NCBI GenBank assembly: GCA_018067045.1
Contig: JAGPVL010000005.1
Span: 10,501 to 34,500, forward strand
DNA: 24,000 nucleotides
Reading direction: 5' to 3'
DNA from: Gammaproteobacteria bacterium
GTDB lineage: Bacteria > Pseudomonadota > Gammaproteobacteria > Pseudomonadales > Alcanivoracaceae
Shown: positions 17,124 to 17,936 of the stretch, piece by piece
Layout: the number at the start of each line of letters is the position of its first letter
How positions within the stretch are numbered: the first letter of the stretch is position 1
Translations under genes and position numbers: made by a program
Notes under the pieces: model-generated
Databases searched by the model: none
Told to the model about the DNA's origin: nothing
What the model saw: the letters and a program-made list of their open reading frames with translations, nothing else

Positions 17124-17936
17124 TTAGTGACCGGTTACAGTGATAGTCTGGTTGCTTAGGTCAAGACCAGTGACATAAACGTTACCGATAGACGCGGAAG
17201 CCGCTGTGCCCATCTTCACGCCCATAGCCGCTATATCCATACCTACCAAAGCGCCATTCGTGTTGATAACGAGACCGCCAGTAGTCACATCAATAGTGAT
17301 GCCGTTTAGGTCAACGTTGTTTACCGCCAGCTCATTCACGATCAGCGAACCGCCGCCATTAGCAGACAGGTCGTTCAAGGTGAAGTTGTCGTTCGCATCG
17401 AGGATGTTACCGATTTGAATATCAACTGGCGCAGAAGTAGCAAGCGACACAAGATTGGTCGCTTCATTACCGACCTGCAGGGTCAGTGAAACGCCTGTCA
17501 GGGTAACGCCTACGCTATCGATGATCGGAGCAACTGCAGCAGCCTCTGTTACGAGGTTTGCAATACCAGCTGTTGCGCTTGTGCCGTCAGTACCCAGACC
17601 AACGCCGATATCACCGGTTTGGATAGTCAGCGTAGGAATGGTAACACCGATTTGAATAACGCCGCCGCCTGTTGCCGTGCTTGCAGAGTCAATCTCAATC
17701 GCAGCAGTACCAACCATAGACATGCCGTCGATTATGATCATACCTGAGTTAAGATTGCCGGTGAAACCGTCAGTATCTTCAATACCCAGTGTCAGGGTTG
17801 AGTTGATGTCGATCGACAAGCTAATACCGTCCTGACCAGTTACGTCAGAAAGAGCTGAATCTTCTAGTGCTTCCATCGCGAAGCCGCTTACTGGTAGGGC
17901 CGCGATTGCAGTTACTAATGCGAGTTTCTTAAACAT
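17124..17936 (-). CDS. Secreted acidic Gly/Thr/Ile/Val-rich repeat-like protein, DUF6160/FilA-like (putative fibre subunit)
   Basis: The ORF-track start at 18053 is a TTG, and its first 39 codons are Cys/Asn-rich junk. The ATG at 17936 has GAGGAGA 8 nt upstream and gives MFKKLALVTAIAALPVSGFA|MEALEDSALSDVTGQDG.. (Sec signal, small residues at -3 and -1). The mature ~250 aa has no Cys, Trp or Arg. It has one Lys, one Tyr and a terminal His, with many Asp/Glu. Short alternating hydrophobic strands are punctuated by Gly-rich turns. Confidence 0.85.
   Translation of the reverse strand: MFKKLALVTAIAALPVSGFAMEALEDSALSDVTGQDGISLSIDINSTLTLGIEDTDGFTGNLNSGMIIIDGMSMVGTAAIEIDSASTATGGGVIQIGVTIPTLTIQTGDIGVGLGTDGTSATAGIANLVTEAAAVAPIIDSVGVTLTGVSLTLQVGNEATNLVSLATSAPVDIQIGNILDANDNFTLNDLSANGGGSLIVNELAVNNVDLNGITIDVTTGGLVINTNGALVGMDIAAMGVKMGTAASASIGNVYVTGLDLSNQTITVTGH

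Follow-up and report, generated by a model that had tools for sequence, protein, structure and literature searches.

A conserved double-glycine-type leader behind the Sec signal of a FilA/DUF6160 pilus subunit, and its candidate C39 peptidase FilB, in an Alcanivoracaceae genome

Leaders of the double-glycine type end in Gly-Gly, Gly-Ala or Gly-Ser, and their consensus recognition element reads Leu(-12)-x3-Glu(-8)-Leu(-7) (Bobeica et al. 2019, PMC6363468). What the corresponding proteases recognise is Leu at -12 and -7, Val at -4 and a small residue at -2; position -4 is mostly occupied by Val, Leu or Ile, and Lys or Asp at this place abolishes cleavage (PMC6363468). The leaders of class II microcins comprise 15-18 residues, and microcin PDI features two of them in tandem (PMC10233263). 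A C39 peptidase of another kind, FapD, is exported via Sec to the periplasm and needs its active-site Cys for secretion (PMC5557850). Secretion through channels of the FapF type depends on such periplasmic peptidases of the FapD type, and pairs of fapD and fapF are also found far outside the Fap operons (PMC5557850, PMC6173800). Here, we describe a locus in which elements of both kinds meet, namely the gene filA and its surroundings in a stretch of 24,000 nucleotides (hereafter the window) from an Alcanivoracaceae genome (contig JAGPVL010000005.1, positions 10,501 to 34,500). The product of filA carries a conserved 15-residue leader directly behind a Sec signal peptide, and a stand-alone C39 peptidase, FilB, is encoded in the same gene cluster.

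The closest described locus is the fil operon of Acinetobacter (filA-filF), the sixth gene product of which, FilF, was tested as a vaccine antigen in A. baumannii (PMC4751259). In the searchable literature, this operon is only named, as a 'putative pilus assembly' locus, and no processing is described. For DUF6160 the literature yielded one unrelated paper; neither a processing of FilA/DUF6160 proteins nor a named substrate of FapD was found, and the same holds for descriptions of a Sec signal combined with a double-glycine-type leader and of a Gly-Gln site for C39 peptidases. We propose that a Fil-type pilus has FilA as its major subunit, and that FilA is synthesised as a pre-pro-protein, the leader of which is cut off by FilB between Gln35 and Asp36. 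Taken as a whole, this statement is rather probable, and its narrower part, the removal of the leader by proteolysis, can be put forward with good confidence. The features of filA concerned are the following (positions are those of the window):

17124..17936, minus strand: filA, encoding the 270-amino-acid FilA/DUF6160 pilus subunit precursor (putative pre-pro-protein), with Pfam and NCBIfam matches
17877..17936, minus strand: Sec signal peptide, residues 1-20 (MFKKLALVTAIAALPVSGFA), with a predicted signal peptidase I site G-F-A↓M
17832..17876, minus strand: leader or propeptide of double-glycine type, 15 residues, 21-35 (MEALEDSALSDVTGQ), defined by the logo of 335 homologues
17826..17834, minus strand: predicted second processing site Q35↓D36 within G34-Q35↓D36-G37, placed by the first residue of the filament chain 9XFV and by the limit of conservation among paralogues

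The coding sequence starts with the ATG at 17936, which is preceded 7 nt upstream by the ribosome-binding site AGGAGA and fits all relatives. A TTG start at 18053, which would yield an open reading frame (ORF) of 309 amino acids, was discarded as an artefact, the extension at 17937-18053 being devoid of homologue support. The 270-residue protein is 100% identical to a database entry (P0001) from a gammaproteobacterial metagenome-assembled genome. It lies above the gathering threshold of Pfam DUF6160 (PF19657; 46.6 bits, cut-off 27, E 4.2e-12) and, with an alignment over its full length, below the cut-off of NCBIfam FilA (NF050077; 124 bits, cut-off 220, E 6e-36). Judged by its sequence, the window protein is a homologue of Acinetobacter-type FilA and not that type itself. 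Its Sec signal consists of a Lys-rich n-region and a hydrophobic core with small residues at -3/-1, behind which signal peptidase I is predicted to cleave at G-F-A↓M. Residues 21-37, encoded by 17826-17876 on the minus strand, read MEALEDSALSDVTGQDG; the codons around the predicted second site are act for Thr33 (17840-17838), ggt for Gly34, cag for Gln35 (17834-17832), gac for Asp36 and ggt for Gly37 (17828-17826). Counted with Gln35 as -1, Gly34 occupies -2, Val32 -4, Leu29 -7, Leu24 -12 and Met21 -15. The AlphaFold2 (AF2) model features a beta-rich core (predicted local distance difference test, pLDDT, 82), which is confident from residue 37 onwards, and residues 26-32 form a short helix of low confidence just before it.

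The conservation of this segment was assessed in 335 full-length homologues, which were those that could be anchored among 339; the four unanchored ones comprised fragments and one variant with Ala at -2. Since the anchor rule demanded G-x-x-G, the values of the two Gly positions, 100% at both -2 and +2, hold partly by construction. Position -15 is Met (72%) or Leu (24%), and -12 is one of Ile, Met, Leu and Val in about 100% of the sequences. Asp occupies -10 in 94%, -7 is Leu (88%) or Met (12%), and Ser prevails at -6 (84%). At -4, Val (70%), Thr (16%) and Ala (9%) together account for 95%, with Val, Ile and Met making up 74%, and -3 is Thr or Ser. The leader ends with Gln in 93%, Arg in 6% and Lys in 1% of the homologues, and Asp follows at +1 in 95%. 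The mean frequency of the commonest residue amounts to 0.80 in the signal and 0.81 in the leader, as compared to 0.47 in the mature body (alignment A1). The first-pass annotation, made from the window's letters alone, had pointed to Val, Leu and Leu at -4, -7 and -12 before Gly-Gln, a spacing that is exact in the window and whose positions -7 and -12 stay hydrophobic in about all sequences of the sample; its statement that the N-terminal motif is conserved in DUF6160/FilA proteins is likewise borne out by the logo.

The signal-peptidase site, too, is kept across the family, with Ala at -16 in 92% and Ala or Gly at -18 in 93%, both positions being small in 320 of the 332 sequences compared. In as many, A-x-A sits exactly 15 residues before Gly-Gln, and all 332 carry Lys or Arg in the n-region. 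As far as sequences can tell, the family-wide layout is thus a Sec signal, A-x-A, a conserved 15-residue segment ending in Gly-Gln, and a mature domain. The bare 20-mer suffices for a match to both NCBIfam FilA (E 1e-5) and Pfam DUF6160 (E 1.8e-5). With a profile built from 35 homologues, 1130 clusters at 50% identity were retrieved among 1.8 billion proteins, and the homologues with the motif span Gamma- and Betaproteobacteria.

Where the leader ends becomes apparent from divergent paralogues. In Piscinibacter terrae (locus L081, 8373-11929), five tandem DUF6160 genes, encoding proteins of 176, 176, 263, 316 and 162 amino acids, precede genes for a C39 peptidase, a FapF-like and a FadL-like protein. 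Their leaders and the two residues that follow read MTSIADSDLAAVTGQ↓DG (in two copies), LKPMSDDELSEVSGQ↓AL, MKPLNDEEMSGVRGS↓DG and VALNDEEMSKVSGQ↓DG, so that one of them is followed by AL in place of DG; in addition, one leader finishes with G-S in place of G-Q, this minor paralogue being the only one with Ser at -1. Beyond this, their mature parts bear no relation to one another, in length as in sequence. In Acinetobacter sp. SFB (locus L078, 5656-11496), four neighbouring genes encode large secreted proteins of 490, 217, 753 and 462 amino acids, each featuring a Sec signal followed by ...TGE↓GI, ...TGQ↓GG, ...TGQ↓DG or ...TGQ↓SL. One minor-paralogue leader, M-S-D-D-E-L-S-E-V-S-G-Q, corresponds to the textbook motif L-S-x-x-E-L-x-x-I-x-G-G save for the last position. 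After G-Q, divergent paralogues thus continue with AL, SL, GG or GI, and since conservation stops right there, the 'DG' is part of the pilin core and not of the leader. Hence, of the GQDG motif highlighted in the first-pass annotation, the Gln in place of the second Gly and the further Gly two residues on are indeed present, whereas its last two residues have to be assigned to the mature pilin.

A second, structural line of evidence comes from 9XFV ('pilus-like-alpha'), a natural filament found in karst-cave water, whose cryogenic electron microscopy model was built de novo and attributed to UniProt A0A257CJ09 (PMC12956863). The filament served that study as a handedness control, and the paper makes no mention of DUF6160, of a gene cluster or of N-terminal processing (PMC12956863). 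When the AF2 model of FilA was compared with the Protein Data Bank (PDB), no significant fold match emerged; the top one was 9XFV, and this weak similarity (E 0.024, Foldseek) became convincing only through sequence profiles. A profile of 33 Burkholderiales DUF6160 sequences matched 9XFV with E 1.5e-60, its positions 38-176 spanning chain residues 1-173 end to end, where position 38 is the Asp after Gly-Gln and position 176 the C-terminal His. A short FilA from a fil locus of Pseudomonas matched with E 1.2e-7, and here, too, chain residue 1 is the Asp after Gly-Gln. The 228 database relatives found for the 9XFV sequence are annotated as DUF6160 (PF19657) wherever any domain is recorded, and their precursors read signal-AxA↓MSSIDDTALSLVSGQ↓DGVSIAGDLNINIG...WMWAH. 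Aligned with these precursors, the deposited subunit is a chain that runs from +1 to the last residue, devoid of both the signal and the 15-residue leader. Had signal peptidase I alone acted, the mature protein would start at Met21, an outcome that the first-pass annotation had set against its own proposal; in the 9XFV relative, the chain begins at the Asp after Gly-Gln instead.

The window FilA shares with 9XFV the membership in DUF6160, and the genes of the 9XFV relatives adjoin those for C39, FapF-like and FadL-like proteins. By hhalign (98.6%, E 1.3e-15), the two families are homologous from the signal through the leader to the first strands. The 9XFV subunit is, however, betaproteobacterial and short (173 residues when mature), whereas the window FilA comprises 235 mature residues and contains insertions. 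Formation of a pilus-like filament is seen in this distant family member and is putative for the window FilA. Searches of the PDB with 25-mers for chains of leader peptides returned only noise.

The candidate for the leader peptidase is encoded on the same strand as filA:

14294..15103, minus strand: filB, encoding a FapD-like C39 cysteine peptidase that stands alone and is the candidate for cutting the leader
14903..14905, minus strand: codon of the catalytic Cys67 of FilB; YDYSCG (residues 63-68) is aligned with the Cys nucleophile in 6MPZ and 4RY2

FilB scores 306 bits with NCBIfam FilB, 125 bits with FapD (cut-off 330) and 74 bits with Pfam Peptidase_C39 (cut-off 22), and it aligns with LahT150 (6MPZ, E 2.6e-8) as well as with PCAT1. 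In these alignments, the catalytic residues Cys67, His152 and Asp168 and the oxyanion Gln61 coincide with their counterparts in LahT150 and PCAT1, and all four are invariant in 27 homologues. The AF2 core is confident over residues 65-200 and superimposes on LahT150 (6MPZ) with a TM-score of 0.76 and a root-mean-square deviation of 1.8 Å; matches to the peptidase domains of ComA (3K8U) and PCAT1 reach E values down to 6e-7. Alignment and library scans hence agree with the initial description of 14294-15103 as a C39 peptidase with Cys67 that is not fused to an ABC (ATP-binding cassette) exporter, and Pfam and NCBIfam scans of the window ORFs revealed no ABC exporter among the window proteins. 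Residues 1-18 (MLETILGVLLIFTAIEQS; 15050-15103, minus strand) are hydrophobic, modelled by AF2 as a helix at 2-18 and without a preceding basic residue, family-wide. At the other end, residues 196-269 (14297-14518, minus strand) form a C-terminal extension, conserved and some 70 residues long, with low AF2 confidence, in which L204, D210, R212, D215 and T218 are near-invariant and which is absent from transporter-borne C39 domains. Within this extension, the acidic amphipathic stretch LTEWDLRLLDDRTINQ is faintly leader-like; it was considered as a pseudo-substrate and rejected, both similarity and model confidence being too low.

The linkage of filA, filB and the genes that follow was surveyed from two sides. 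The downstream genes in the window are:

13205..14257, minus strand: filC, encoding a FapF-like outer-membrane protein (NCBIfam FilC E 2.7e-105, FapF E 3.7e-19)
11492..13171, minus strand: filD, encoding a FadL/OmpP1-family outer-membrane protein (NCBIfam FilD 758 bits; Toluene_X E 9e-66)

In 80 genome loci found with FilA patterns, filB follows directly downstream in 68, filC in 65 and filD in 64, with one to three or more filA paralogues lying ahead of filB and most exceptions being contig ends. Since these loci had been picked by the motif itself, the linkage was retested from the side of the peptidase in 80 metagenome loci seeded with FilB, 59 of which were informative (at least 1.2 kb of upstream sequence). 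Among these, 47 feature an ORF with signal plus leader upstream on the same strand, as compared to a background of 3 matches of the leader regular expression in 1.1 million residues of other frames. The negative FilB-seeded loci have too little upstream sequence, given that a sulfotransferase gene inserted ahead of filB shifts filA by about 2.9 kb, or belong to one filA-less lineage. Read from gene order, the linkage between leader and C39 peptidase is strong, although it has exceptions, and a substrate gene can also lie at another place.

These observations lead to the following proposal. FilA would be exported via Sec, whereupon signal peptidase I would remove residues 1-20 at A-x-A (G-F-A↓M). 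This would expose the 15-residue propeptide MEALEDSALSDVTGQ, whose hydrophobic residues at -15, -12, -7 and -4 may line up on one face of a short helix. FilB would recognise this helix and cut between Gln35 and Asp36, so that the mature pilin would start with Asp-Gly. Because FilB is not fused to an ABC exporter, this cleavage would be periplasmic rather than cytoplasmic, and the enzyme would be at work at the periplasmic face of the inner membrane. The cut would occur before or during the hand-over of the pilin to FilC and FilD for export and polymerisation, and may license export or assembly.

Several points weigh against the cleavage of the FilA leader by FilB. Gln, Arg or Lys at -1 lies outside the GG/GA/GS rule of characterised C39 substrates. 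When the bare leader was compared with NCBIfam and Pfam at E values up to 10, no bacteriocin-leader hidden Markov model (HMM) was matched, only FilA and DUF6160, although the filters of HMMER may hide very weak matches to leader families; with no curated model matched, the resemblance is one of spacing and residue type and not a demonstrable homology. In one metagenomic lineage (L142, 4400-10400; L126, L149, L155 and L157), filB-filC-filD-filE occur without an adjacent filA, the cluster lying beside a divergent pabB, as it does in the window. Conversely, some leader-bearing genes are without a nearby C39 gene; the satellite cluster of Acinetobacter sp. SFB is one such case, with no C39, FapF-like or FadL-like gene within 8 kb, and its products are candidate substrates that might be processed in trans. 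Finally, the N-terminal segment of FilB may be either a cleaved signal or a membrane anchor, and its periplasmic topology is assumed by analogy with FapD.

Among the alternatives, removal of the leader by another protease fares best, with FilB processing a part of the machinery instead, such as a minor subunit or, in FilC, the periplasmic linker or the plug. Cleavage of the FapF linker or of FapE has been suggested for FapD from mass spectrometry coverage (PMC5557850, PMC6173800), and such a division of labour would suit both the misfit of Gln at -1 with the known C39 specificity and the filBCDE clusters without an adjacent filA. The leader nevertheless displays exactly the determinants of double-glycine proteases, at -12, -7, -4 and with Gly at -2, and no further protease is conserved in the operon. 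Moreover, several leader proteins beside a single C39 gene conform to the pattern of a multi-substrate GG peptidase. On balance, this alternative is unlikely.

The leader might also not be cleaved at all but serve as a targeting or docking helix for FilC, or for FilB acting as a C39-like chaperone, and merely be disordered and thus invisible in 9XFV. C39-like domains that bind without cutting are known (PMC6363468, PMC6173800), residues 21-35 are modelled by AF2 with low confidence, and the 9XFV record may list only modelled residues, so that a flexible uncleaved leader is conceivable. On the contrary, non-cutting C39-like domains lack the Cys (PMC6363468), whereas the full catalytic set of FilB is invariant in the 27 homologues, and FapD needs its catalytic Cys (PMC5557850). 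The 9XFV chain, in turn, is complete from +1, with the break exactly where the conservation of the leader ends. An uncleaved docking element is therefore quite improbable.

A third possibility is a one-step maturation reminiscent of prepilin peptidases, in which signal peptidase I does not act, the signal serves as an anchor and a membrane-tethered FilB cuts at Gly-Gln. The N-terminal hydrophobic helix of FilB (AF2, H2-18) could be such a tether, and Met1 and the cut are separated by an almost invariable 36-37 residues. Selection would, however, not maintain an unused site, and A-x-A at -18/-16 is kept in 320 of 332 sequences; FapD, for its part, functions with a cleavable OmpA signal (PMC5557850). 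We consider a single cut very doubtful. Within the proposed two-step maturation, a register shifted by one, with cleavage between Gly and Gln and Gly retained at P1, is less likely than a cut behind Gln, given that the hydrophobic spacing would become -3/-6/-11 and that the start of 9XFV disagrees with it. The idea that a single sequence resembles a double-glycine leader by chance, to which the lack of HMM-level similarity to bacteriocin leader families might lend some colour, has virtually no probability left, being refuted by the near-invariance of the motif in 335 gamma- and betaproteobacterial sequences and its constant linkage to a C39 gene, both of which uphold the earlier view that the motif is functional and not fortuitous.

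Besides the leader, the locus contains the following further features:

17127..17186, minus strand: conserved C-terminal segment of FilA, ending ...ITVTGH (family alignment)
17083..17097, no strand assigned: GC-rich perfect hairpin CCCGGCAAAGCCGGG between a run of A and a run of T, directly 3' of the filA stop
15383..16990, minus strand: gene between filA and filB for a sulfotransferase-domain protein of 535 amino acids without signal peptide (Sulfotransfer_3 E 1.7e-41)
10306..11403, minus strand: filE-like gene for a lipoprotein (lipobox LAAC) with weak FilE_C and MalM matches (E ~5e-3)
7958..10051, minus strand: gene at the filF position for a predicted lipoprotein of 697 amino acids (lipobox ISGC)

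The C-terminus of the FilA family (...GNVYVTGLDLSNQTITVTGH) finishes with GH, AH or GK in 302 of 339 members, and the last 20 residues show a mean conservation of 0.69, as compared to 0.47 in the mature body (alignment A1). The C-terminal His is also present in the filament chain of 9XFV, and this end of the protein may represent a second recognition or assembly element. The hairpin behind filA resembles a two-way intrinsic terminator and could give a high ratio of subunit to machinery expression. The insertion of the sulfotransferase gene places filA about 2.9 kb from filB; a homologue occurs at the same position in 15 of 80 related loci. The filE-like lipoprotein is syntenic in 35 of the 80 FilA-seeded loci. 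For the 697-residue lipoprotein, no match was obtained in Pfam and NCBIfam, and homologues with 24-51% identity are found at the same position in 20 related loci. The rest of the window is ordinary, with prpF-acnD-prpC-prpB, a GntR regulator, pabB, rlmG, rimO and an EamA transporter; the prp genes form a complete methylcitrate-cycle cluster together with the GntR-type regulator (111-7567, minus strand).

In its gene order and families, the window resembles the Acinetobacter fil operon, comprising a DUF6160 subunit, a C39 peptidase, FapF-like and FadL-like proteins and lipoproteins, and Acinetobacter FilA bears the same leader, e.g. AMQAMDDAALSATTGQ↓DG. Unlike that operon, the window features an additional sulfotransferase gene and an unrelated sixth gene, and with FilA, FilB, FilC and FilD all below the NCBIfam cut-offs it represents a diverged, Alcanivoracaceae-type version. 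The similarity to the Pseudomonas Fap system, with FapD and the trimeric channel FapF, is confined to these two components: FilB matches FapD with 125 bits and FilC matches FapF with 69 bits, which in view of the equivalog cut-offs (330 and 700 bits, respectively) designates related modules and not Fap itself, and no window ORF matches the amyloid-repeat subunits FapB/FapC. In contrast to Fap, what is exported here is a pilin of the DUF6160 family, whose beta core is folded, and a conserved candidate site is present. If the proposal is true, it would provide FapD-class peptidases, the target of which has been an open question of amyloid secretion since 2017, with their first defined substrate motif. 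Fil offers a simple and conserved candidate for such a target, a 15-residue Gly-Gln leader on the secreted subunit itself.

With the leaders of class II bacteriocins, microcins and ribosomally synthesised and post-translationally modified peptides (ColV/CvaB, ComC/ComA, LahA/LahT), the FilA leader has in common its length of about 15 residues, hydrophobic residues at -12, -7 and -4, Gly at -2 and acidic residues in between. It differs from them in featuring Gln, Arg or Lys at -1, where they have Gly, Ala or Ser, and in its position behind a Sec signal and not at the extreme N-terminus. Furthermore, the cargo is a pilin of 235 residues in place of a small peptide, and FilB is without the fusion to an ABC exporter that characterises PCAT/AMS systems, in which the C39 domain is part of the transporter. 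Confirmation of the proposal would extend double-glycine chemistry from small peptides handled in the cytoplasm by ABC-coupled enzymes to a folded pilin in the periplasm, with a different P1 residue. At the same time, the anonymous environmental filament 9XFV gains a family, DUF6160, and a gene cluster, and the occurrence of the fil operon in Acinetobacter baumannii adds a medical link.

On a wider scale, the Fil-type pili may constitute an assembly pathway of their own, which with at least 1130 protein clusters at 50% identity would be common among Gamma- and Betaproteobacteria. It would combine Sec export, a cut by a stand-alone periplasmic C39 peptidase with an unusual Gly-Gln↓Asp specificity and FapF-like export, and the leader would act as a portable ticket, carried not only by the major pilins but also by minor paralogues and by large satellite proteins from other places in the genome; we give this generalisation an even chance. 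Removal of the N-terminus of a subunit by a dedicated protease, as a prerequisite for polymerisation, is a principle of type IV pili, with their prepilin peptidase, and of the type V FimA/Mfa pili of Bacteroidia, which the Fil pili would share. Those pili differ from Fil in their protease families (aspartic A24 and gingipain C25, respectively), in leader types and in export routes. Taken together, the parts of the Fil locus, i.e. a C39 peptidase, a GG-type leader and a FapF-like channel, are all known from other systems, whereas their combination and the P1 residue are new.

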